From contig JAEOTZ010000032.1 of the NCBI GenBank assembly GCA_016839585.1, forward strand, positions 1-21,742: a stretch of 21,742 bases of DNA. The letters run 5' to 3'. The DNA is from Promethearchaeota archaeon (GTDB lineage: Archaea; Asgardarchaeota; Lokiarchaeia; Sigyniarchaeales; SOKP01). This document shows positions 1 to 21,523 of the stretch, piece after piece (positions within the stretch are counted from its first letter, which is position 1; every line of letters starts with the position of its first letter). A model generated the notes under the pieces. That model ran no database searches and was not told where the DNA came from. It saw nothing but the letters and a program-made list of their open reading frames with translations. The position numbers and the translations under genes were made by a program.

Positions 1-573
<573 letters not shown>

Positions 574-596
574 TATAATATTATATAAGAACACTA

Positions 597-612
597 TATT
601 TAAATTTTTTTT
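597..612 (-). promoter_or_regulatory. Putative rRNA promoter (A-rich BRE + TATA box TTTAAATA)
   Basis: Minus strand reads AAAAAAAA-TTTAAATA about 25 nt upstream of where the structured leader begins (~573). Confidence 0.55.
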
Positions 613-717
613 GTTTTTCTGAGGAAAATATAATTGTTCTTAATAAATTTTCGTACTTTAAAAATCTCTTTTAAAATAGAAGTATATCATTTTAAAAAAT
701 TGTACTTGGAATTTAAA

Positions 718-1719
718 ATGCACCTAAAAGAAAAAATAGGAATCCATTTAGACCAAATTAAACAATTAAAAGGAGTTGAAAATGCAGTATTGACTCAGAG
801 GGATGGTAATCCAATTCAATCTACTGGAGTTTGGTTCTCTAAAGATGAAATTTTTAATGTCAGTTCTGCAACCAGTGCAATTTTTAATGTTGGAATACAT
901 CTACATCCAAATGATTTAAAATATATTTTAATTGAAGGTAAAAAAGCGAAAATTTTAATCGCACCATTAAATAGTCCTTTGCACCATTCTTTAAATAGAA
1001 TTTTAGAACAGCAAGGTATTTTAGATGACAATCATGAATTTTTTATAGCAATTACAGCTCAACCTAACGTTAATTTAGGGGGTATATTTTTACAAACGAG
1101 TGAATGTTTGAAAAAAATTAAGACAACTTTAATAACTTCCGGAGAATCATTCAAACCACCCTTAATTCAGTTTACAAATCAGAAAATTCAAAATATAATC
1201 GAAGGATTCAATGTTAAAGAAAATGAAGAATTTAATTTGAGAGTATCATCATTTTCTTTAAGTTTTTCAGAAAATATATCAATTGAACTAAGAAAAATTT
1301 TAAATAATTTTTCATTAACAATTCCAGATTTAAAATATGCCTTTATTACGATTGAAGGTGGTTTTATTGCTTCTAAAATATTAAAAAAATTTGATGTTAA
1401 TAAAGAAAAGTTAGATAACATTTCAGCAATGAGTTATTCGCTCTTTCAAACAGCTAACAGATGTGCATGGTTATTAAAAAAAATGCAAGCCGAGAATATT
1501 TTGCTTGATTGTGAAAATACTTTTCAGTTTATTAATGGATTAGGAAAAGCAATATTTAGTACTGAAATTGGAAAAGTACGCCAAAAATTGGGGCTTATAA
1601 GGTTAATACTTCCACAATTCTCAAAAAAGATTAATACACTTATTAAGCAAGCATCTGAAATTCAAGATCACAGAACTTTTGATATTAAAAGATTATTGGG
1701 AGAATTAATAATTAAATAA
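718..1719 (+). CDS. Tandem (double) Roadblock/LC7 (MglB/LAMTOR-like) domain protein
   Basis: Two Roadblock patterns: 'LDQIKQLKGVENAVLTQRDGNPIQS..VSSATSAIF..YILIEGKKAKILIAPL..FIAITAQPNVNLGGI' and 'IPDLKYAFITIEGGFIAS..ISAMSYSL..ILLDCEN..KLGLIRL'. ATG at 718 preferred over the TTG at 634. Confidence 0.85.
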   Translation: MHLKEKIGIHLDQIKQLKGVENAVLTQRDGNPIQSTGVWFSKDEIFNVSSATSAIFNVGIHLHPNDLKYILIEGKKAKILIAPLNSPLHHSLNRILEQQGILDDNHEFFIAITAQPNVNLGGIFLQTSECLKKIKTTLITSGESFKPPLIQFTNQKIQNIIEGFNVKENEEFNLRVSSFSLSFSENISIELRKILNNFSLTIPDLKYAFITIEGGFIASKILKKFDVNKEKLDNISAMSYSLFQTANRCAWLLKKMQAENILLDCENTFQFINGLGKAIFSTEIGKVRQKLGLIRLILPQFSKKINTLIKQASEIQDHRTFDIKRLLGELIIK

Positions 1720-1732
1720 TGTAGGTGGAAGC

Positions 1733-2629
1733 ATGAATTTTTTTGAATTTTTAGATAAACTTAAAAAAAATGATAATTCCTTAATTTTATATTGCCTTCT
1801 CGATAGAATTCCAATCATAGTGTTAGGAGAAGATTCAGAGCAAGTTGATCAATTTCTAATCGATTTATCTGAACTTATTCATTTTAGAAAAGAATATGTG
1901 TTTTATACAGACTTTATTTCAAACAATGAATACAATAATTTAGTTTTAAACGAAAATATCGATTTTAATTCTCAAAGAAGTCATATTAGATGTCCTTGCA
2001 ATGTAGCTAGAAAAGCACTAAGTCAAATTGAAGATATTAATTCTTGGCTTATTGGAATGGAACTTCCTGACCAAAAAGATCATTTTAATTATTTAAAAAA
2101 CTTAATTATAAAAAAAGCGATTAAGGTCTTATTTATAATGATCTCAGCTAATAATATTTCAATTGAAGTAGAAGGAATTGATCTCAAATTAATTGATTTA
2201 ACACTAGAACAAAAAATTTTCAGAAAAATTTCTCAAGATACAGAAAAATCTATTGCTAAAATGAAGAGAGTCTTATCCGAAAAAATTCAAGTGAATCATC
2301 TTGATAAAGATCTAATGAAGACTTTATTAGATTTTGAAGTAGAGAAAAACGAATTGAAAAAAAATATTGTTAAAGCTGAAATTCAAAATTTTTATTCAGG
2401 CTCAAAAAGAGCTTTCTTCATATTATCAAGATTATCATTATTAAATAATGTAGAAATTAATACAAATATAGGAAGTAAAACACTTTTAGAAACAATTGAT
2501 TACGAAGAAGCACCTATAAACCGAATAATATCATTTATTGCGAAGGAATGGGAGGCCAATTTTTCTATCTTAATAGAAAATGGTAAAAAAGCATTTATGG
2601 GAGATAAAATAGTTTCACTATGGGGTTGA
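1733..2629 (+). CDS. Conserved hypothetical protein, cDENN-like (SMCR8/folliculin-type) N-terminal region
   Basis: 298-aa ORF with a GGTGG SD-like motif. 'LILYCLLDRIPIIVLGEDSEQVDQFLIDLSELI..SWLIGM' resembles the cDENN core as I recall it from SMCR8/FLCN. Fold assignment is by eye only. Confidence 0.55.
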   Translation: MNFFEFLDKLKKNDNSLILYCLLDRIPIIVLGEDSEQVDQFLIDLSELIHFRKEYVFYTDFISNNEYNNLVLNENIDFNSQRSHIRCPCNVARKALSQIEDINSWLIGMELPDQKDHFNYLKNLIIKKAIKVLFIMISANNISIEVEGIDLKLIDLTLEQKIFRKISQDTEKSIAKMKRVLSEKIQVNHLDKDLMKTLLDFEVEKNELKKNIVKAEIQNFYSGSKRAFFILSRLSLLNNVEINTNIGSKTLLETIDYEEAPINRIISFIAKEWEANFSILIENGKKAFMGDKIVSLWG

Positions 2630-2636
2630 ATCTAAT

Positions 2637-3230
2637 ATGATTTATGATTTTGAAAATAAAACCTTACAGGTTAAAATAGTATATTATGGACCGGCCATGT
2701 CAGGAAAAACAACATCGATTAAACATCTCTTTTCTTATTTTAATAAAGAAGATATGTTAGAGTCTATTGATAATTCTGTAGGGAGGACCTTATTTTTTGA
2801 TTTTGGTGTTTTACAATTCAAGGGGACTGAATGGGGATTGAAATGTTTAATATATTCTGCCACAGGTCAAGATTTTTATGCAAGTACTCGCCCAGCTACT
2901 TTAAATGGAGTAGATGGTATAATATTTGTAGTTGACTCACAATTGGAATATTTAGAACATAATTTATGCTCTTGGAACGAATTAAAAACACTGTTTGGAG
3001 AAGAAATATATAATATCCCTATAGTAATTGCCTTAAATAAATGCGATTTAGATAATATAAAAAAATTAAAGGAACTTGATTTTGTCTCGCATATTAATTA
3101 TGATAGATTCAAAAATCTATCGCTTAAAAAAACAATAGCAATTAAAGGAGAAGGAATAATAGCGTCGTTTTTCCAATTAATTAGATTTATTTTCCCTCAA
3201 CTAAATTTAAAAATCAGTGTTATTAATTGA
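2637..3230 (+). CDS. MglA-family small GTPase
   Basis: KIVYYGPAMSGKTT (G1), GRTLFFDF (G2 with intrinsic Arg), SATGQ (G3), GVDGIIFVVDSQ and NKCD (G4), all MglA signature motifs. Confidence 0.92.
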   Translation: MIYDFENKTLQVKIVYYGPAMSGKTTSIKHLFSYFNKEDMLESIDNSVGRTLFFDFGVLQFKGTEWGLKCLIYSATGQDFYASTRPATLNGVDGIIFVVDSQLEYLEHNLCSWNELKTLFGEEIYNIPIVIALNKCDLDNIKKLKELDFVSHINYDRFKNLSLKKTIAIKGEGIIASFFQLIRFIFPQLNLKISVIN

Positions 3231-3699: not shown

Positions 3700-4386
3700 T
3701 TAAATATCTTGAAAATCCTTAAAATTATTGCCTATTGGAGCCTCTCCATCTCCATATATTTGATATAATCCTGTTCTTCTAGCACATTCTGAAAAACTAC
3801 GATATATATTTTTCCTTTGGTCATATAATGCACATGATTTATAAATGATGGGATTCCAAATATATAGCTCATGATCAGGTTCATACCAGAGTTTTTCATC
3901 TTTCATTACTTGCTTAAAATCTTCTTCTCCAATCACTTCTTTAAGATCTTGCTTATTTAACATGATTATAAGAGGAATTTCTTTAATTAACTTTCCTCTT
4001 GTTACATTTTTTAGCTCTTTCAATGATTCTATATTATCTTCGAAAAAGTGGGTTTGTGAATCAACAGTAAATATAACTCCATCAGTACCTTTAAATATTT
4101 TTTTTCTTAATGGGGAAAATCTTCTTTGACCTGCCACAGTATACACGTGATAAAATACTTTTCCTCTGCTTTTCTGTTTTGTAGATTGAAAAATCCCTCT
4201 ATCAAAATAAAGTGTGGATCCACTTGCCATAGAAATTTTAGTTAAATGACCCGTTGGTTCAATATCTTTTTCATCTTCTTTTGTTAATCTATAAAGCGTA
4301 TCTACAATTGTTGTCTTTCCTGAGCCAGCCATTCCCCAATAGAGTATCTTTATATATACTTTATGATCTGCTGTAAATCGAACCAT
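3700..4386 (-). CDS. MglA-like small GTPase (second paralogue)
   Basis: KILYWGMAGSGKTT, GSTLYFDRG, VYTVAGQ, FKGTDGVIFTVDSQ, NKQD and SCA motifs. AGGAG SD upstream. Confidence 0.92.
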   Translation of the reverse strand: MVRFTADHKVYIKILYWGMAGSGKTTIVDTLYRLTKEDEKDIEPTGHLTKISMASGSTLYFDRGIFQSTKQKSRGKVFYHVYTVAGQRRFSPLRKKIFKGTDGVIFTVDSQTHFFEDNIESLKELKNVTRGKLIKEIPLIIMLNKQDLKEVIGEEDFKQVMKDEKLWYEPDHELYIWNPIIYKSCALYDQRKNIYRSFSECARRTGLYQIYGDGEAPIGNNFKDFQDI

Positions 4387-5093: not shown

Positions 5094-6110
5094 ATGAAAG
5101 AATTAAAAAATCAATTTATTAATTATGAAGAATGTCCAGAATGTGGGGGAGATATAGTCCTTAATAGCTTTGAACAAATTTGCAATGAGTGTGGGTTGGT
5201 AATTAATAGGTTTTTTAGAGAGTCCTCTTACATTTTTGATAATAATATAAAAAAACTCAATAATTTAAGCAAACAATACGTAGCTTTAGGAGAACGAACA
5301 GATTTTATAGGGGGTTTAGGGTCATTTATAGATTATGAAAATTCTAAATATTTAAAGGATAAATCAGGTAAACTTTTACCTCCAAATGAACAAAAATTAT
5401 ATAGAAGATTAAAAAAAAATTATTCTCAATTTTTAAGGATTAAAAACCATGAAACTGAATATAGAGTTTTTAATATTTTAAACAAAATTTCGCTATATCT
5501 AAATTTTAATAAAAATATTCGTAATAGTGCTGCTTATTATTACAAAAAAATCTTAAAGCAAGAAGAAAAAGTTATTAATAATATTTCTTTAATAGCTTTT
5601 TGTGTTTTTTATGCTGCAAGAAAAGAAAACCAAAACGCTCCAATTACTATTAACGAAATATCGGAAGCTTTTCAAAATTTTGGACATAGAGTCAACCCAA
5701 GATTAATTCTGAGGGATGGTTTAAAATATAAAAAACATTTGAATACCGACTCTGCACCTCATAAGAGCGAAGATTATCTTATTAGGTTAATAGATGAAGT
5801 GATTAATCACAATGATTTAGAGAATAGAATGGTTAAAAAGGGAGTTTTATGGTTTAAGAAAGAATATCAAAGTAATTTAACGATAAAATGTCGCGAAATA
5901 TTGAAACAGTTATCCTATTGGACACGTGGGGGTAGAAATCCATTTATTTTAACTGGGGCGGTAATATATTTAGCAGATAAATTAATAGCTAAAGAAAAGA
6001 AACAGAAATCAATTTTAACACAAAAAATGATATCAGAAGCCACCAAAATTGCTGAATATTCTATTCGAGACCATTATGTAAATTTATTGAAACCTCAATT
6101 TATTAAATGA
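5094..6110 (+). CDS. Transcription factor B (TFB/TFIIB) family protein, divergent
   Basis: N-terminal Zn ribbon CPECGG..CNECGLVI, two cyclin-like repeats, GRNP motif and C-terminal HTH 'TQKMISEATKIAEYSIRDHY'. Confidence 0.88.
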   Translation: MKELKNQFINYEECPECGGDIVLNSFEQICNECGLVINRFFRESSYIFDNNIKKLNNLSKQYVALGERTDFIGGLGSFIDYENSKYLKDKSGKLLPPNEQKLYRRLKKNYSQFLRIKNHETEYRVFNILNKISLYLNFNKNIRNSAAYYYKKILKQEEKVINNISLIAFCVFYAARKENQNAPITINEISEAFQNFGHRVNPRLILRDGLKYKKHLNTDSAPHKSEDYLIRLIDEVINHNDLENRMVKKGVLWFKKEYQSNLTIKCREILKQLSYWTRGGRNPFILTGAVIYLADKLIAKEKKQKSILTQKMISEATKIAEYSIRDHYVNLLKPQFIK

Positions 6111-8704: not shown

Positions 8705-8989
8705 AATTAAATTATTATATAGTTTTTAGAGGTTAATCTTAAAATAATGAAAGTTACAATTTAACTTTTTGATTGTCGGAATCGACAAAAAACACTAAAT
8801 CTTCATATTGCCATTTTTTGATAATAAGAACTTTTCTGAAGAGACAGATGATTCACGAGAAATAATTAAGTGGAACTCTCAACAAATAAATAATTAAAAT
8901 TTTATTATGAAAAATTATTACTCTGTATTTTATTATAAGCAACAGTTTTCTTAAATTTATATAATTTTTATTGATTGTATTTTATGATA

Positions 8990-10189
8990 ATGGATTATTT
9001 TGAAGAATTATTGAAAAAACCTTCAATCTTTAAGGATGAAAGTAAACTAGATATTAATTTTATACCAGATGAATTACCACATAGGGAAAAAGAGTTATCT
9101 TTATTATCTCAACTTTTTTTAACGTTAATTACTAATCCAAATTCAATATCAAGAAAAATCTTAATAACAGGGAAAACAGGGATAGGAAAAACAGTAACGG
9201 TAAAATTATTTGGAGATATTTTAAAAAAAGCATCAAGAAAAAGGAATATTTCTATTAAATATGTTCATATTAATTGTAGAAAAGAAAGAAGCGGTTATAA
9301 AGTCTTAATAAAGATCATTCGTTCAATCCATAAACACTTTCCACAAAGAGGATATTCACCACAGGATTTATTAGAAATCGTTATTGAGTACTTAAATAAA
9401 TACGATTTACATCTTTTAATTGTATTAGATGAATTAAGTTATCTTATAAATAAAGGCGAAGATTTAATTTATTCTTTAACTCGGATAAATGATGATTCTA
9501 TGAATTCTCAACAAAGATTATCTATTATTGGAATAGTAAGAGATATCTCATGCTTAAATAATCTAGATTCCAGTACATTGAGCACACTGCAAAGGAATAT
9601 CATAAATTTTGATGAATATTCCAGGGAGCAAATTTTTAACATTATAAAATTCAGAGCAGATTTAAGTTTAAACCAAAATGCTCTTTCAGACGATTTGATC
9701 GAGATGATATCAGAGATTCTTTTTAAGAATGGTGATATTAGATATGGATTAAATATTTTATGGAGAGCTGCTAAAATCGCAGAAAGCCAAAGTCTAAAAT
9801 ATATTAATGCCGAATGTATTAGAGCAGGAAACCAAAATCTAGTACCTTACTCAACCCAAGATATTTTAAAATATATGGCTTCACCAAAATTAATTTTTTT
9901 ATTGGCAATAATTAAAAGTTTAAAAGTGAGTGAGAAGACCCAGATCTCTTTTTTGGATATTTCAAAAATATATAATATAGTTTGTGAAAATACAAGATTA
10001 AAGCCGCGTTCATATTCACAATTATGGAATTACCTTCAAGAATTTCATAGAGAGAATCTCATTTTAATAAAAGTAAAGAGTGAGAATATAAAAGGGAGAA
10101 AGACATTTATTAAAATTCCTAATATTGAATTATCGAAATTTGAAAAGATTATTTTAAATATATTAAGTCATAGAGGCTTGAAAATTTGA
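8990..10189 (+). CDS. cdc6: Cdc6/Orc1 replication initiator
   Basis: FIPDELPHREKE, Walker A GKTGIGKT, HINC, Walker B IVLDE, GDIR sensor 2 and C-terminal wHTH. Start is 8990 or 8984. Confidence 0.95.
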   Translation: MDYFEELLKKPSIFKDESKLDINFIPDELPHREKELSLLSQLFLTLITNPNSISRKILITGKTGIGKTVTVKLFGDILKKASRKRNISIKYVHINCRKERSGYKVLIKIIRSIHKHFPQRGYSPQDLLEIVIEYLNKYDLHLLIVLDELSYLINKGEDLIYSLTRINDDSMNSQQRLSIIGIVRDISCLNNLDSSTLSTLQRNIINFDEYSREQIFNIIKFRADLSLNQNALSDDLIEMISEILFKNGDIRYGLNILWRAAKIAESQSLKYINAECIRAGNQNLVPYSTQDILKYMASPKLIFLLAIIKSLKVSEKTQISFLDISKIYNIVCENTRLKPRSYSQLWNYLQEFHRENLILIKVKSENIKGRKTFIKIPNIELSKFEKIILNILSHRGLKI

Positions 10190-10483: not shown

Positions 10484-11152
10484 ATGAATTTCTTAATATT
10501 GATTTTTAATTTTTGGTTTATAAGTGTAATACTATTTTTTTGTGTTTATCTTGATTTGAAATCCAGAAAAATTCCTAATAGTTTGTTTAAATATCTCTTT
10601 ATTATTTGTATAATTTTAAATTTTATTGAATTTATTTTTTGTTTTGAAGATATTATAAGAGTTATTGTTTTGAAATTTCTTTTTCTATTTATCATTCTTT
10701 CTTTATCATTTTTATTATTCTTTTTACACATTATTGGAGGAGCCGATGGGAAACTTTTTATGTTAATCTTTTTTGTACATCCTGTCAAATTTTTAACTTT
10801 TTATTTCATAACTTCTTTCCTTTTATTATTCTCCTTATTGATTCTTTTAATTTTTATGATAAACTTCGCAAACAATATTAATTTTAGAAATAATGATTCA
10901 TTTGAAATTTTTTTTAATACTAATTACAAATTCTCAAGTTTTAAGAGAAGTTTTATTAAAACATTCTTTAAATTTTTGAATTTTTCAGAATTAGAGTATT
11001 ATAATGAAGATAAACATCTTGTTAAATCTCTCATCTTAATTTACAATAGTGCAAGAAGAAGAATACAAATTCTAGTTCAGTATAGACCTCCTCTTATTTT
11101 TATCAGCTTAATATCTTATTTTCCTGTTTTATTTATACTGGTTTATTTTTAA
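10484..11152 (+). CDS. A24 prepilin/prearchaellin peptidase (PibD/FlaK-like)
   Basis: Catalytic motifs 'YLDLKSRKIPN' and 'IIGGADGKL' (GxxD type); multiple TM segments. Confidence 0.88.
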   Translation: MNFLILIFNFWFISVILFFCVYLDLKSRKIPNSLFKYLFIICIILNFIEFIFCFEDIIRVIVLKFLFLFIILSLSFLLFFLHIIGGADGKLFMLIFFVHPVKFLTFYFITSFLLLFSLLILLIFMINFANNINFRNNDSFEIFFNTNYKFSSFKRSFIKTFFKFLNFSELEYYNEDKHLVKSLILIYNSARRRIQILVQYRPPLIFISLISYFPVLFILVYF

Positions 11153-11708: not shown

Positions 11709-12197
11709 TCATTGGATTCTTTCAATCTTATATTCACAATAATCTAAATTCAAATTTTCAAGACAACATTCATTTTCAGAAACGATTACCCTATATAGAG
11801 CAAATTCTCCAAAACCAGTTAATAAACCTGTTATAAAATAACAAAAGTATTTTGATTTATTTTCTAACTCTGATGATATATTATGATAAAGACGTATAAT
11901 GATCAAATCTTCAGAAACAAGTTTAGCACTCAATCGCCCCCACCCATGATTACTTAAAATGTTACAAAAATGATTTACTAAATCTTCTAAAGATTTTGGT
12001 TTTAGATTTTCATCCCAATTTTGTATAAATGTCCAACCTGTTTTTTTACCAAGCCAAACTAATAAAGATTTTACACCCTCACCATAAATTGATGAAAGAA
12101 TGTCAATTATTTGTGGAGGAAAAAAAACAAAACGATCATTAAATAATTCGTATTTGCCCTTATTATATTTTAAACCTTTCAATTTCAAAGTTCTCAT
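11709..12197 (-). CDS. V4R-domain protein (Bet3/TRAPPC3-related fold)
   Basis: 'LVWLGKKTG', 'HGWGRL', 'FCYFITGLLTGF' and 'VSENECC..DYCEYKI' are V4R motifs. Confidence 0.85.
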   Translation of the reverse strand: MRTLKLKGLKYNKGKYELFNDRFVFFPPQIIDILSSIYGEGVKSLLVWLGKKTGWTFIQNWDENLKPKSLEDLVNHFCNILSNHGWGRLSAKLVSEDLIIIRLYHNISSELENKSKYFCYFITGLLTGFGEFALYRVIVSENECCLENLNLDYCEYKIERIQ

Positions 12198-12648: not shown

Positions 12649-14175
12649 CTATATAAAATTCAATACATTCAATAATGAGATTAAAAAAGTTAAAATGAAT
12701 ATTATGTTCGCAACAATCACAATAAAAAACCTCTTATTGTGATTAATAATTTTTAAAAAGTAATAAGAAGTAATTGAAATTATTGATAGTAATGAGAGGA
12801 ATATAATGATTATATCTTTGAAATATACTATATTAAAAAGAATATTTAATGAAAAATTATTACTTAATTGAATATTTTTATTTAACAAAACAAAAAGAGG
12901 GAACATGCCCCCTATAACCCCGGTGACGAGTGGTAGGAGAAATAGGAAAAAAAACACTTTAAATTTTTCTCCTTTTATTATTATTTCTAATTTTGTTTCA
13001 AGTTTTTGATGTTTTGATAAAACAGCCAAGATGTCAAATATTTTTTCAGAAGAAAAAAAAGCATTTTGTTCAACAAATTTTTCAATAGCCTCTAAAATTA
13101 TTTTGAAACGTATTGAATTCAATTCAAATTTTAAATTATTTATCATTTCTCGGAATGAACAAGAAATATTTAGAAGCAATGAAATTTGATTCTTTAAAGG
13201 GACTTCTATCAAATCATAGAGTTTTCTATTTTGGGAATAAGATTTAAGAAAAGCATATTCAGGTGATATATTCCTTCTTAAATTATTAGCAAAGCTTTTT
13301 AAAAATAGAAGAAATTCATGAATTTTTTTTTTTTCTATTTTTGAATATTCCCCTATCAAACCTATTAAGAAATTATTTTGTTTTATAAACTTTTTAAATA
13401 ATGAATTTAATATGAATAAGAAGAGAGGTATGGAAAGGATTGTAAAAATTAGATTAATCAGTTGGAATGATAAAAGAAAACATAATCCTATTGGAAAAAA
13501 CAATCCTATAAAAAAGATTATACTTAATTTTGATTCGATATCTCTTAAATATATCTTAAAGTTTCTTTCTAATGTATTGTCTTTAAAATCCACAAATCCA
13601 GATTCATTATTAAAATTGGAGGTTAATAAATCTTTTAAATATCTATTAAAATCTTCAGAAGGTGTTAGAATGTTCATAAGCACTTTTTCTGGGAGCTCAC
13701 CTTCATGAGTTCTTCTTAAAATTTCTTTAAAATTATCTGAAATTGGAAGATTATAATTTTTTATTAATTTTATGAAATTTATGCAATAATCAGAATTTTT
13801 CTTTAATGATTTTTGAATCAGTGAAAAGTCTATTTTAATTAGATAGAGCATTGCATTAATTATTGATTCATTTTTTTGTATTTCATTCAAGAGATAAACG
13901 CTAAACTTATAAGATAAAATTAAAGAGAAAAGAAATGAATAAAAGAAAATGATTAAAATATGAAAAAATGAGAAGATAGCAGAGAAAATAACGAAAAAAC
14001 TAAGTGAGATTAAAAATATTATAAAACTAGCTTTATAAATATCATCTTCACTAATATCATAATAATTATTATAAATACTTTTATACCTATCATTTAATTC
14101 CTTAAATTTTAATTTGGGAATATGAAATTTATGAAATCTCCTACAAAAATAAAGATAACTCTCCATGAAATTCAT
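12649..14175 (-). CDS. TadB/TadC/ArlJ-like membrane platform protein (T2SS F-like)
   Basis: Two cytoplasmic domains ('FKEILRRTHEGELPEKVL', 'FANNLRRNISPEYAF') alternate with TM pairs. Downstream of a secretion ATPase. Confidence 0.75.
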   Translation of the reverse strand: MNFMESYLYFCRRFHKFHIPKLKFKELNDRYKSIYNNYYDISEDDIYKASFIIFLISLSFFVIFSAIFSFFHILIIFFYSFLFSLILSYKFSVYLLNEIQKNESIINAMLYLIKIDFSLIQKSLKKNSDYCINFIKLIKNYNLPISDNFKEILRRTHEGELPEKVLMNILTPSEDFNRYLKDLLTSNFNNESGFVDFKDNTLERNFKIYLRDIESKLSIIFFIGLFFPIGLCFLLSFQLINLIFTILSIPLFLFILNSLFKKFIKQNNFLIGLIGEYSKIEKKKIHEFLLFLKSFANNLRRNISPEYAFLKSYSQNRKLYDLIEVPLKNQISLLLNISCSFREMINNLKFELNSIRFKIILEAIEKFVEQNAFFSSEKIFDILAVLSKHQKLETKLEIIIKGEKFKVFFFLFLLPLVTGVIGGMFPLFVLLNKNIQLSNNFSLNILFNIVYFKDIIIIFLSLLSIISITSYYFLKIINHNKRFFIVIVANIIFILTFLISLLNVLNFI

Positions 14176-14187
14176 ATTAGAAATACC

Positions 14188-14610
14188 TTAATAATAATCA
14201 ATTAATTGGACTTTTATTAGATGCAATACGAAAGAAACATTCAAGAGGTATGTTTTAGGGAGAATATCATGAAAAACATTGTAGATAAAACTTTCATTGT
14301 AGAATATAATTATATATTGCGGTTCATCTCTAATAATAAAATCATATTTAGCATATTGATTATATAAAGTTATATTCAGATTGGATGGATATTCGATGGA
14401 TTTAAGAAAATCTTCTTCTGGGTTATCAATAACATGAAGAATGGCTTGATCCATCTCATTGATAAAGGATATATAATTTTCTATGTCATTTTTTTCATTA
14501 TTATTAAATTTGGATATTGCTTCTAAAAATGGACTAATTAGAGAAAAGAAAATTAATAAAGTTAAAATTCCATAACCTATAATTAATCCCTTTTCTAATA
14601 AGTTTGTCAT
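14188..14610 (-). CDS. Putative type IV pilin-like protein
   Basis: N-terminal 'MTNLLEKG-LIIGYGILTLLIFFSLI' hydrophobic helix followed by a beta-rich domain. Located between the ATPase and platform genes. Confidence 0.5.
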   Translation of the reverse strand: MTNLLEKGLIIGYGILTLLIFFSLISPFLEAISKFNNNEKNDIENYISFINEMDQAILHVIDNPEEDFLKSIEYPSNLNITLYNQYAKYDFIIRDEPQYIIIFYNESFIYNVFHDILPKTYLLNVSFVLHLIKVQLIDYY

Positions 14611-14626
14611 GTAATTTAATTTAAAT

Positions 14627-16810
14627 TTAAAAATTTAAACCTCGATTCTTTTTCCAGTTATTCCAAAAATTCTCAAGTATGTCATATGATTGAAAAGAAT
14701 TATAAGAGATTCTATGGAAGAAGTTGATTAATTTATAATTATCAACCTTATTAATTTTGGAGATAAATGTGAAAATATCATTATATATTTTGATTATAAA
14801 TGAGAAATTTTCTCTATTTAAATCTTCATATCTTCTCAATTCATTAATTATTTTGGTTTCGAAAAGAGGATTTAATAAATTCCATTTTTTTGATTCCGGA
14901 TTATATTGGAATATATTGTTGTATAGCTTTTCTATCTTTAGGTTATCGCCAATTTCAGAAATCGCGATGATTTTTCTTTGATTGCCATCTTTTTTCATTA
15001 AAATAATAAGATCTAAATCATTTAAACATGATTTATTAATTTTAAAATGATGTACAAATCGGTTAATTAAAGAATCTATATTATTAGAATGGATTGTTTG
15101 AAAACCCCTTAATCCAGCAGCAAGACAATGAAACATCGCCTCTGCCTCTTCTTTAGTCAATATTTCACCTAAGTATATCATATCTGGTGTTCGGTGTAAG
15201 AGTGTTTTTATCTGACTACTTTTGGAATAATTCTCTTTTAATAAAGAATCATAAGAATCAACTTTATATTTTAACTGATGTTTCCCGAAATTAAATTGAT
15301 TTAAAGATTCCACTATATTTTCAACATAGATCTTTCTAAATTCTTTAGGAGTTAATAAATCTAATGCATTAATCAATGTTGTTTTTCCAGTATCAGTTTC
15401 ACCGGTAACAGTTATGTTTCTTCTTCGCAAAATATTAAAATATAAGAAAGTAGCCATTAATGGGTTTAGAGTTCCATTTTTTAATAAATCTTGAATATTA
15501 AGAATATTTTTATTCAATTTTCTTATGTCTAACGCAAAGTTATTCAATTGAATAGGTTCAATATCTAACGCAAATCTACAATAGAAAAATTTGTTTTTTA
15601 AAACAAGTTTTATACTAGGTTTCATAAAATCCAGTCTTTGACCACTATAGAGTCTTAATAATGTTTTTATCCTTTCTATCTCTCTTATATTAAATTTTAT
15701 ATTTGTTCGACATCGCCCATATTTTTGATGATTAATATAAATTTCATCGTGAGGAGAATCTAAGAATATTTCTTCAATAAGATCATCTATTAATAAAGGA
15801 AAGATTTTTTCTAAATTTAATCGTTTTAGAGCTGAAATAAAGGCAATCTTATTATTATCAATTTTAGAAAATCGATACTTTTCATTAAGAATTTTTAAAG
15901 ATTCTCGTTTATATATATTTATTAAATTTTCTAAGGGGATAATTTGATCAAAGTTGACAATATTTAAGCTATTTGATATATCTTGAATAATTTTTTTAAT
16001 ATAATCCTCTTCTGATCTTGAATGGTAATTATAATGGACTAAATATTTATTTTCAGCCTCAAATGAAATATTAGAAATGTAAACCTGATAAAGATTATTT
16101 TTTCCAATCATATAAGTTTTAATTACTTCCTCCTGTTTTAACAGAGTGGGGAGCCTAAATTCTTGATCTTTTGCATGTAGTTGGAAGGATTTAGAAAATA
16201 AATTCTTATAAAAATTGAAACTGCCTTGAGATTTATCGCTTTCATATTTAAACTTATTGAGCAATTTAATAATTTTTAAGTGATTTAAGATTTCAGCAAT
16301 AGATTTTTCTAAGCTTTTTAAATAATTAACACAATTTAAGCAAAAATTATTAAAAATTTTATTTTCTCCTAAAAAAGAAATTCTTTTCAAGTGGGTATTA
16401 TATACTAGAACTGGGTCATAGAACTCGAAATCATGTATTTTAACTAATGAAAAATAATCTGGAAAATTTTTACATTTAAATTCTTGATAAATACATCTCT
16501 TTTTCCTAACATTTTCAATTTTTTGATTTATTCTTTTAATCTTATTTAATTTTTTGAAATAATCCAGAATTAAATCATATTGTTCAGGTTCAATTAAGAT
16601 TTCATTTTTCGAAATTAAAATACGATTAAACTTGTTATTTTTGTTGATAAAGATATTAAGTAATAAACAGTAAATACATGTTTTATTCTTATAGAACTTT
16701 TTTTCTTTTTCAGAACATTTTTTACAATCAATAATTAAGAAATTCTCTTTTTTACCTGCTAAATTTTCTTTTTTTTGAAAAATGACTCTTTTTTTTAGAT
16801 TTATTACCAT
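14627..16810 (-). CDS. Type II/IV secretion ATPase (TadA/CpaF/ArlI/VirB11 family) with Cys-rich N-terminus
   Basis: 'PLLIDDLIEEI', 'LDIRK', Walker A GETDTGKTT, 'RTPDMIYLGE' Walker B and 'TIHS' His box. Confidence 0.9.
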   Translation of the reverse strand: MVINLKKRVIFQKKENLAGKKENFLIIDCKKCSEKEKKFYKNKTCIYCLLLNIFINKNNKFNRILISKNEILIEPEQYDLILDYFKKLNKIKRINQKIENVRKKRCIYQEFKCKNFPDYFSLVKIHDFEFYDPVLVYNTHLKRISFLGENKIFNNFCLNCVNYLKSLEKSIAEILNHLKIIKLLNKFKYESDKSQGSFNFYKNLFSKSFQLHAKDQEFRLPTLLKQEEVIKTYMIGKNNLYQVYISNISFEAENKYLVHYNYHSRSEEDYIKKIIQDISNSLNIVNFDQIIPLENLINIYKRESLKILNEKYRFSKIDNNKIAFISALKRLNLEKIFPLLIDDLIEEIFLDSPHDEIYINHQKYGRCRTNIKFNIREIERIKTLLRLYSGQRLDFMKPSIKLVLKNKFFYCRFALDIEPIQLNNFALDIRKLNKNILNIQDLLKNGTLNPLMATFLYFNILRRRNITVTGETDTGKTTLINALDLLTPKEFRKIYVENIVESLNQFNFGKHQLKYKVDSYDSLLKENYSKSSQIKTLLHRTPDMIYLGEILTKEEAEAMFHCLAAGLRGFQTIHSNNIDSLINRFVHHFKINKSCLNDLDLIILMKKDGNQRKIIAISEIGDNLKIEKLYNNIFQYNPESKKWNLLNPLFETKIINELRRYEDLNRENFSFIIKIYNDIFTFISKINKVDNYKLINFFHRISYNSFQSYDILENFWNNWKKNRGLNF

Positions 16811-20248: not shown

Positions 20249-21523
20249 ATGGTTATAAAATTGCTAGAATCTATTAAAGCATTTTTAACTAGTTTAAATC
20301 CAGATATCATAGTTCAAGCACCATCCAGAATTAATTTAATTAATCCATTAGATGCTGTAGAGGGAGATTTCTGGATGCCTTCTGTAGCAATTAATGGAGA
20401 AAACGATCCTTTATCTGCTTTTCTTTATATCAAGAAAATTAACAATGAAAGTAGAGTGAAGTTGTTTAATATAAGAAAAAAACATCAAAATTATGATTTT
20501 GAGATAATAAAAGAAGAAATCCTTCCTAAGAATAGGAATGATATTAAAAAAAAGAGCTCTGGAGAACTTAAATTAATATATGCAAGTATTAATAAATTTC
20601 TTGAAATGAATTCATGTTTTAACTATAAGTTTTTAAATTCCAATATTGAAATTGGTTTTTTTACAACTATACCTAAACAAAGTGGATTGGGAGGGAGTAC
20701 AGCAATAATAATAGCAATAATCTATGGTCTCGCTAAATATTTCAATTTATATAATAATTTAACAAAGTTAAGAGAGAATGAATTTCCTATCAATAAAGAT
20801 ACGATTGCTGAAATGGCCACAAAAATAGAAGATGAAGATTTGCAGATCACAGCTGGTTATTCTGATAGATATGTAATAAGCAGGGGAGGTTTATGTTTTT
20901 GTTCCTATTATGGTAAGTTAAATCATAAAAAACTTTCAATGGAACCTTTAGCAGTGTATGATAGAATCGATAAGGTATATAAGATAAATGATTTGCCCAT
21001 AATTGTTTGCTTCTCTGGTGTATTTCACAAAAGCGGCGATGTACATGCAAGATTAAGGAAACTTTATCTAAAAAAAGATCCTAGAACCATAAATGGATAT
21101 TTTAAATTAGCGGAAATATCTTGGAAATCGCGATTTGCTATAATGAAACAAGATTGGAAATTATTAGGCAAATATTTCAAAGAAAATACTGAAATAATGA
21201 ATCAAATAATGAAAAATGCGGGTTTTGAATATGGGATTGGATTAGCAAATAATATTTTAATAAGAGTTATTGAAGAAAACCCAGAAGTGTATGCTGCTAA
21301 ATTAACTGGAGCAGGAGGTGGTGGCTCAGTTTTTGCCTTAGTTAATCCTGATAAAAAGCAAGAAATTTTAAACTATTGGGAAAAAAAAGTATATGAAATC
21401 ATTGAAAATAATGATATTTTTTCTTCTGTTTTTCCAAATTTCCCATCTAATATTAGATTTAAGCTTAAAAATGCGAAGTTCTATAAAATCATAATTGATA
21501 GAGATGGTGTGAAAAGATTATAA
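20249..21523 (+). CDS. GHMP-family sugar kinase (HddA/fucokinase/glucuronokinase-like)
   Basis: Motif I APSRINL, motif II IPKQSGLGGS, motif III AKLTGAGGGGS. Confidence 0.88.
   Translation: MVIKLLESIKAFLTSLNPDIIVQAPSRINLINPLDAVEGDFWMPSVAINGENDPLSAFLYIKKINNESRVKLFNIRKKHQNYDFEIIKEEILPKNRNDIKKKSSGELKLIYASINKFLEMNSCFNYKFLNSNIEIGFFTTIPKQSGLGGSTAIIIAIIYGLAKYFNLYNNLTKLRENEFPINKDTIAEMATKIEDEDLQITAGYSDRYVISRGGLCFCSYYGKLNHKKLSMEPLAVYDRIDKVYKINDLPIIVCFSGVFHKSGDVHARLRKLYLKKDPRTINGYFKLAEISWKSRFAIMKQDWKLLGKYFKENTEIMNQIMKNAGFEYGIGLANNILIRVIEENPEVYAAKLTGAGGGGSVFALVNPDKKQEILNYWEKKVYEIIENNDIFSSVFPNFPSNIRFKLKNAKFYKIIIDRDGVKRL

Follow-up and report, generated by a model that had tools for sequence, protein, structure and literature searches.

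Much of eukaryotic membrane traffic and of mTORC1 signalling is under the control of DENN domains, which were long held to have arisen in eukaryotes only. Two kinds of described system are among those closest to the archaeal operon analyzed here. In the MglA-MglB switch of Myxococcus xanthus and Thermus thermophilus, the small GTPase MglA itself supplies Arg53 and Gln82, which an MglB dimer positions in a 2:1 MglB:MglA GTPase-activating protein (GAP) mechanism (PMC6785124). In the eukaryotic FLCN-FNIP and C9orf72-SMCR8(-WDR41) complexes, longin (uDENN) and DENN domains are fused, and the MglB dimer structurally resembles the uDENN dimer of C9orf72-SMCR8 (PMC8336837). Here, we describe a three-gene operon encoding a tandem Roadblock protein, a DENN core without a longin domain and an MglA-family small GTPase in the first 21.7 kb of contig C15 (JAEOTZ010000032.1) of a 3.45-Mb Lokiarchaeal genome (Promethearchaeota, Asgard archaea); this whole stretch of 21,742 nt is referred to as the window. 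We lean slightly toward reading the operon as an MglA/MglB-type switch in which the fused Roadblock pair would serve as the GAP platform and the DENN core would dock as a modulator or scaffold. As the initial annotation had noted, the three open reading frames (ORFs) are co-oriented and separated by gaps of 13 and 7 nt:

718..1719, + strand: tandem Roadblock/LC7 protein, 333 aa (Pfam Robl_LC7, AlphaFold2 model, structure search, profile matches)
1733..2629, + strand: stand-alone DENN core without a longin domain, 298 aa (AlphaFold2 model, VIA structure search, ESM Atlas neighbours)
2637..3230, + strand: MglA-family small GTPase, 197 aa (phmmer against the PDB; residues invariant in 45 operon copies)

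The ATG at 718, and not the TTG at 634 proposed by the ORF caller, was taken as the start of the first gene because its homologs are 333 aa long.

An Asgard operon of a LAMTOR1-like Roadblock protein, a small Rab-like GTPase and a DENN-domain protein was predicted by Liu et al. (bioRxiv 10.1101/2020.10.19.343400, Fig. 5b); the preprint also states that this GTPase does not belong to the Rags and that FLCN-like fusions occur in some Heimdallarchaea. The two descriptions share the three components, the predicted operon, broad Asgard conservation and the analogy to FLCN and Ragulator, and they are almost surely of the same operon, since the window holds the sole DENN gene found in this genome. 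The operon is already known, having been predicted in print in 2020, and the work reportedly appeared later in Nature (2021). Compared with the labels in the preprint, ours differ in placing the GTPase in the MglA family instead of calling it Rab-like, and in describing the Roadblock protein as an MglB-like fusion of two domains instead of LAMTOR1-like. A literature search found no experimental follow-up or bench test of the operon. The present analysis is a refinement, and what it adds is the MglA label, the MglB-like two-domain label, structural confirmation of the longin-less DENN core, the lineage pattern and a weak predicted interaction that depends on the Roadblock protein.

The third protein was assigned from its sequence to the MglA family, and to neither the Rag nor the Rab family. 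A phmmer search against the PDB matched MglA with an E-value of 4e-25, compared with 1.6e-6 for Arf1 and 6.5e-6 for Rab11, in line with the MglA-like GTPase proposed initially. The protein has an intact P-loop, Arg50/Thr51 in switch I, an xxTGQ motif with Gln78 and an NKxD motif, and lacks the Asp of DxxG. Residues K24, R50, T51, D55, Q78, N134, K135 and D137 are invariant in 45 operon copies, with R50, T51, D55 and Q78 aligning with Arg53, Thr54, Asp58 and Gln82 of MglA. The protein comprises the GTPase domain only (197 aa), with no C-terminal Roadblock domain, no Gtr1_RagA match at E ≤ 1 in Pfam and no lipidation signal seen. In a GTPase tree built without bacterial MglA, the operon GTPases grouped apart from the Ras-like Asgard GTPases (100/100); the tree neither resolved them as a single clade nor settled its deep forks. 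Nested among the operon copies is an unlinked paralog from the window's genome, 49% identical to the operon GTPase (L117:3300-3893, G000 C47); this genome also carries a separate pair of Roadblock and MglA-like genes (L118:2846-4089, G000 C87). A 376-aa ORF behind that pair gave a weak match to the DENN profile, failed against members of the DENN family (E ≥ 0.03) and was dropped.

The first protein is a two-domain MglB-like fusion of two different Roadblock domains, which agrees with the tandem Roadblock read initially from the sequence. Its layout is a first Roadblock domain (RB1, residues ~1-141) with a lineage-specific helical insertion at ~87-105, a linker (~142-181), a second Roadblock domain (RB2, ~182-314) and a short C-terminal helix (~323-331). 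Pfam detected Robl_LC7 in the first domain only (E 2e-6), and the AlphaFold2 model shows both, with a predicted local distance difference test score (pLDDT) of 81 and a predicted template modelling score (pTM) of 0.80; the C-terminal helix is modelled with little confidence (pLDDT <50), and its amphipathicity is no more than moderate. In the VIA structure search, the best fold match of RB2 was Thermus MglB (3t1r; Z 17.4, root-mean-square deviation [rmsd] 1.7, 130 residues), and RB1 matched a Thor Roadblock protein (7f8m, Z 12.4) and a Ragulator-like chain (8fw5_G, Z 14.0). By sequence, the family profile matched an MK-D1 Roadblock protein (E 2e-9) and Myxococcus MglB (E 6e-4). Helix 2 of RB1 has small conserved residues, with E44 and A54 invariant. 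The two halves gave no alignment to each other in BLASTP, so either the duplication is old or the halves are of separate origin. Among close relatives, the Roadblock gene is the most conserved of the three, with 80-98% identity, compared with 66-96% for the DENN gene.

The middle protein was assigned, on the basis of its predicted structure, as a cDENN+dDENN core without a longin domain. The AlphaFold2 model, built from 75 homologs, is confident (pLDDT 90.9, pTM 0.87) and consists of a cDENN alpha/beta sandwich (~1-150) followed by a helical dDENN region (~155-298). When it was compared with 48,161 solved chains by VIA, the best match was the C-terminal domain of folliculin (Z 13.9, rmsd 3.5 Å, 187 of 199 residues aligned), followed by FLCN in the lysosomal complex (Z 13.7), DENND10 (12.0), SMCR8 (11.7), the GspE ATPase (11.6), DENND1A (11.5), C9orf72 (11.3) and a FlaI-type ATPase (10.2). 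DENN proteins thus account for six of the top seven rows, and their alignments cover model residues 1 to ~280, i.e., both subdomains; the lead of folliculin over GspE is ~2 Z units. The aligned regions of the known structures are SMCR8 708-913, DENND1A 170-372 and FLCN from 346; since the cDENN and dDENN of SMCR8 span 701-869 and 870-916, respectively (PMC8336837), the alignments begin where cDENN begins, and the protein therefore corresponds to cDENN+dDENN. No N-terminal longin domain was found in the same chain: the model opens with cDENN, and the orthologs are 290-310 aa long. The folliculin, SMCR8 and DENND1 comparisons suggested in the initial annotation thus bore out both its DENN-like fold and its lack of a longin; the LILYCLL motif quoted there as the beginning of the protein is present but starts at residue 17, and WLIGM lies at 105-109.

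Other searches were less direct. Neither Pfam nor phmmer against the PDB gave a DENN match for the window copy, and Pfam detected Folliculin_C weakly in 3 of the 75 homologs (best E 5e-4). Foldseek on the PDB gave no match at E ≤ 0.001, ranking DENND1B 5th and 7th and FLCN 24th, which is not decisive alone. The nearest feature neighbours in the ESM Atlas were archaeal clusters, in one of which 12% of the members are C9orf72-like, and the next were eukaryotic clusters with Folliculin_C/SMCR8_C, SPA, Avl9, DENND11 and Njmu-R1; an Atlas shape search returned only the protein's own-family cluster and P-loop NTPases. A match of the family profile to ferritin helices, its only match in the PDB, was rejected as compositional. 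The DENN assignment is based on the coverage, the six DENN rows, the Atlas neighbours and the weak Folliculin_C matches combined. The gene is single copy; no longer fused form of the family turned up in a search covering 542-2000 aa, a negative that carries little weight.

The order Roadblock-DENN-GTPase was found in all 31 close loci, a few of them partial or cut by contig ends, and in all 40 distant loci chosen from nine Asgard families, with gaps mostly <25 nt or overlapping genes. These loci include named members of the Lokiarchaeota, Helarchaeota, Thorarchaeota and Baldrarchaeia, so the synteny across Asgard genomes that had been suggested as a check was observed, with one exception given below; the linkage of the three genes is far beyond chance. 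In a profile search of 301 genomes of the phylum, DENN was found in 172 and the tandem Roadblock in 168, in the same ten families. Another 20 families, with 118 genomes between them, yielded no match to the tandem Roadblock profile (about 300 genomes and 30 families sampled); one of these families is Heimdallarchaeota by the label on one member. Because the genomes are related and mostly incomplete and the profiles were built from operon-bearing lineages, these counts are to be read as "not found" and not as "absent". Since no operon was found for 118 of 300 genomes, making up 20 of the 30 sampled families, the statement of Liu et al. that it occurs in most Asgard archaea needs a caveat. Weak DENN-profile matches in other families came from proteins of 326-397 aa in which the DENN-like part starts at residue 158-214, i.e., after ~150-200 residues, and some of which show faint Folliculin, Folliculin_C, DENN or C9orf72 matches. 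These Heimdall-type proteins are likely longin-DENN fusions, with a putative longin, and fit the fused longin-DENN proteins described by Liu et al. (bioRxiv 2020.10.19.343400) and in PMC12290439. The lineage pattern of the operon seems complementary to that of the fused Heimdall forms.

A three-chain structure prediction with GTP, in which the scored partner was the DENN protein and not the Roadblock-GTPase pair, gave a score of 0.56 compared with 0.00 for the best control; the runs agreed in ≥92% of contacts, and the pLDDT of the partner was 81. The score fell to 0.00 once the Roadblock chain was replaced; the 0.00 obtained for DENN and GTPase with an unrelated third chain is no evidence against DENN-GTPase binding. 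In calibration, solved pairs reached the mark in 58 of 80 cases and mismatched pairs in 2 of 110; at 0.60 or under were only 7 of the 80 solved pairs and both mismatches, so the score of 0.56 shifts the odds only a little. The prediction lends weak support to the DENN core being a partner of the Roadblock protein. As for the initially proposed split DENN module with the Roadblock protein in the place of the longin, this partnering is the part that gained some support, whereas an arginine-finger GAP mechanism of the FLCN/SMCR8 type is not needed because the operon GTPase has its own catalytic arginine. Were an arginine supplied in trans after all, R248 of RB2 and R52, R82 and R226 of the DENN protein would be the candidates.

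The MglA/MglB-type switch is favoured because of the MglA identity of the GTPase, the invariant R50, T51 and Q78, the match of RB2 to MglB, helix 2 of RB1, the DENN fold, the gene order in 40 of 40 distant loci, the matching family distributions of DENN and Roadblock, and the complex score. RB1 and RB2 would together form, within one chain, an asymmetric counterpart of the MglB dimer; this pair would sit across the switch regions of the GTPase and accelerate hydrolysis by holding Arg50 and Gln78 in position. The DENN core would dock on the Roadblock protein, rebuilding in trans the fused longin+DENN arrangement of FLCN-FNIP and C9orf72-SMCR8, and would act as a modulator or scaffold (in localisation, partner recruitment and possibly nucleotide exchange), not by supplying a catalytic arginine. 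The most likely kind of output would be, as for MglA, the spatial control of a process linked to the membrane or the cytoskeleton.

Several observations weigh against this switch. Helix 2 of RB2 has Asp/Gln244 and Arg/Lys248 where MglB has small residues, and the contact of RB2 with the GTPase may therefore differ; the one indication that the two Roadblock domains pair within the chain is the pTM of 0.80. The complex score may reflect a likeness to solved longin-DENN structures. At one locus (L055; G135:C139), the DENN gene lacks both neighbours and the tandem Roadblock gene is on another contig. Finally, the genome encodes at least four other MglA-like GTPases and ~14 other Roadblock proteins, so the true substrate could be elsewhere.

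Like the MglA-MglB switch, the operon combines an MglA-family GTPase bearing an intrinsic Arg finger and Gln with an upstream gene for a Roadblock partner, whose best fold match is MglB and in which a C-terminal helix follows the Roadblock domain; it differs in joining two unlike Roadblocks in one chain in place of the MglB homodimer, in placing a DENN-core gene between the two and in its archaeal host. With FLCN-FNIP and C9orf72-SMCR8(-WDR41), the operon shares the cDENN+dDENN fold (Z 13.9, 11.7 and 11.3) and a putative paired Roadblock/longin-type platform beside a small GTPase. In contrast to them, it has no fused longin and one DENN core gene instead of two paralogs, a longin arginine finger is not needed, and the putative target is MglA-type and not Rag, Arf or Rab. 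An evolutionary extension of the favoured switch, which we offer as tentative and somewhat doubtful, is that the MglA-type GTPase is regulated by a stable complex of the tandem Roadblock with the longin-less DENN core, and that this represents a surviving unfused stage between the MglA/MglB switch and the eukaryotic longin-DENN complexes, kept in Loki-, Hel-, Thor- and Baldr-type Asgards, with fused longin-DENN proteins taking its place in Heimdallarchaeia. If so, this would be the first case of a DENN domain being shown to act on a GTPase other than Rab, Arf or Rag. The operon bears on the origin of eukaryotic GTPase regulators; the split form may precede or parallel the fused Heimdall and eukaryotic form. 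Asgard GTPases seldom adjoin their regulators (PMC10933270), and a matched set in one operon is therefore a rare place to test the ancestral job of cDENN/dDENN with three small proteins.

Alternatively, Roadblock and DENN proteins could form a composite DENN-type guanine nucleotide exchange factor (GEF), as DENND1 does for Rab35, acting on the operon GTPase or on Rab/Rag-like GTPases elsewhere, a reading put forward by Liu et al.; we regard this as unlikely, albeit a serious contender. The DENN core matches the GEF domains of DENND1A and DENND1B (Z 11.5; Foldseek probability 0.98-0.99 but E ~1e-2), it has conserved surface-type charged residues (R25, R52, D60, E74, R82, E159 and R226), and in the DENND1 complex Rab35 is contacted by all three parts of the DENN module (PMC3521125). 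However, the top fold match is the FLCN C-terminal domain, from a known GAP complex, and a fold match shows no function. MglB has a GEF side activity via its C-terminal helix (PMC6785124), and the Roadblock protein likewise ends in a short helix, although the low confidence and moderate amphipathicity of the latter, given above, argue against an equivalent role.

A somewhat less probable alternative casts the DENN protein as an effector of the GTP state, or as an independent scaffold, of an MglA/MglB-like pair; the protein would then take no part in the nucleotide cycle. The GTPase and the fused Roadblock pair already hold all the parts that MglA and MglB need for GAP, and possibly GEF, action. 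Operons often carry outputs alongside regulators. In contrast, the complex signal, weak as it is, requires the Roadblock chain, and eukaryotic cDENN/dDENN always accompany a longin (PMC3521125), which fits pairing of the DENN core with the Roadblock protein. Both the composite GEF and the effector partly overlap with the MglA/MglB-type switch.

It is quite improbable that the nutrient-sensing module of Ragulator, Rag and FLCN descends directly from the operon or has its functional equivalent in it. The best fold match of the DENN core is indeed FLCN, and Pfam gave weak MAPKK1_Int (LAMTOR3) matches in 11 of 50 Roadblock homologs and LAMTOR5 matches in 4 of 50. Yet the likeness to Ragulator and Rag drawn in the initial annotation did not hold as stated: the GTPase is assigned to MglA and is not a Rag, Rab or Arf, lacking the C-terminal Roadblock and Gtr1_RagA match of a Rag, and MglB and archaeal Roadblocks (Z 17.4-15.0) outrank LAMTOR2/3 (Z 14.0). 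What is shared with Ragulator-Rag is a Roadblock-domain pairing, putative here, as a GTPase scaffold; the five-subunit Ragulator design of a lipid-anchored LAMTOR1 and two Roadblock heterodimers is replaced by one two-domain chain, with no GTPase-Roadblock fusion, no LAMTOR1-type lipidated anchor seen and two Roadblock domains only. In the searched Heimdallarchaeota family, the operon was not found, and the longer DENN proteins of that family are better candidates for an FLCN/SMCR8 ancestor (PMC12290439). A head-to-head arrangement of the operon with an rRNA gene in the window's family would suit a nutrient-sensing module, but this adjacency is established only for close relatives. The name "Ragulator/Rag/FLCN equivalent" would stand for an analogy only.

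It is hardly credible that the middle protein should be a P-loop ATPase of the GspE/PilT/VirB11 kind that has degenerated and whose DENN likeness is mere shared alpha/beta topology: GspE and FlaI ATPases do reach the Z scores given above and P-loop NTPases fill its Foldseek and Atlas shape searches, but such matches are to be expected, since cDENN shows a minimal P-loop topology that lacks the nucleotide residues (PMC3521125), 41 copies contain no Walker A GxxxxGK(T/S) (the Gly alone is kept, in 30 of 41, with no conserved Lys or Thr/Ser), DENN proteins dominate the top VIA rows over residues 1 to ~280, the family profile recovers proteins with independent weak Folliculin, Folliculin_C, DENN and C9orf72 matches, and the language-model neighbours with an assigned family are all DENN-type.

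Two features flank the operon:

3700..4386, − strand: second MglA-like GTPase, 228 aa, convergent to the operon (MglA, E 1e-19)
1..368, − strand: 5′ end of the 16S rRNA gene (Rfam RF01959, E 5e-90), given as context only

The second GTPase, in which Ser replaces the switch-I Arg (the motif lacks Arg in 28 of 28 copies), adjoins the operon in 28 of 31 close loci and lies within ~4 kb of it in 5 of 40 distant loci, all of the window's own family; it is a neighbour in close relatives only and not a core part of the operon. It is 86-98% identical across close relatives, i.e., more conserved than the operon GTPase, has a 79%-identical paralog on contig C77 and forms a separate branch in the GTPase tree. 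It is a candidate slow or pseudo-GTPase, or a candidate target requiring an arginine in trans. The 16S rRNA gene is divergent from the operon, with a 349-bp intergenic region, and this arrangement is kept in 24 of 31 close loci; in distant families, coding genes are often upstream of the operon. A shared or divergent promoter is possible for this layout (window positions 1-717).

Among the other genomes, two full, diverged operon copies were observed in a Helarchaeota genome (G237; L066 and L067) and in a Lokiarchaeal genome (G302; L125 and L132). Two closed Lokiarchaeal genomes, of 4.3 Mb (G306; L128) and 6.0 Mb (G303; L131), likewise carry the operon intact. One operon, 66-80% identical to the window copy, was located in a bin labelled Patescibacteria (L028), probably on a mis-binned Lokiarchaeal contig. 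The DENN-like proteins of 326-397 aa (L102-L109) number up to three per Heimdall genome. A 356-aa protein from a genome of the Heimdallarchaeota family (L106:1123-2193, − strand) combines a weak DENN-profile match at residues 188-231 with a C-terminal 4Fe-4S dicluster domain (E 6e-8), making it a possible DENN-ferredoxin fusion.

Elsewhere in the window, the translations at 12649-16810 (− strand) show a cluster made up of a membrane protein with multiple passes, a short ORF resembling pilins and, at 727 aa, an ORF that carries a Walker A motif and has the look of a type II/IV secretion ATPase; a prepilin-peptidase-like ORF lies nearby at 10484-11152. A 162-aa ORF at 11709-12197 (− strand) resembles V4R/TRAPP-fold proteins and has a weak DUF2507 match (E 0.017). 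By inspection, the window further contains TFIIB-like (5094-6110) and Cdc6/Orc1-like (8975-10189) ORFs, ribosomal proteins L3, L4 and L23 (16943-19038) and a GHMP-kinase-like ORF (20249-21523).

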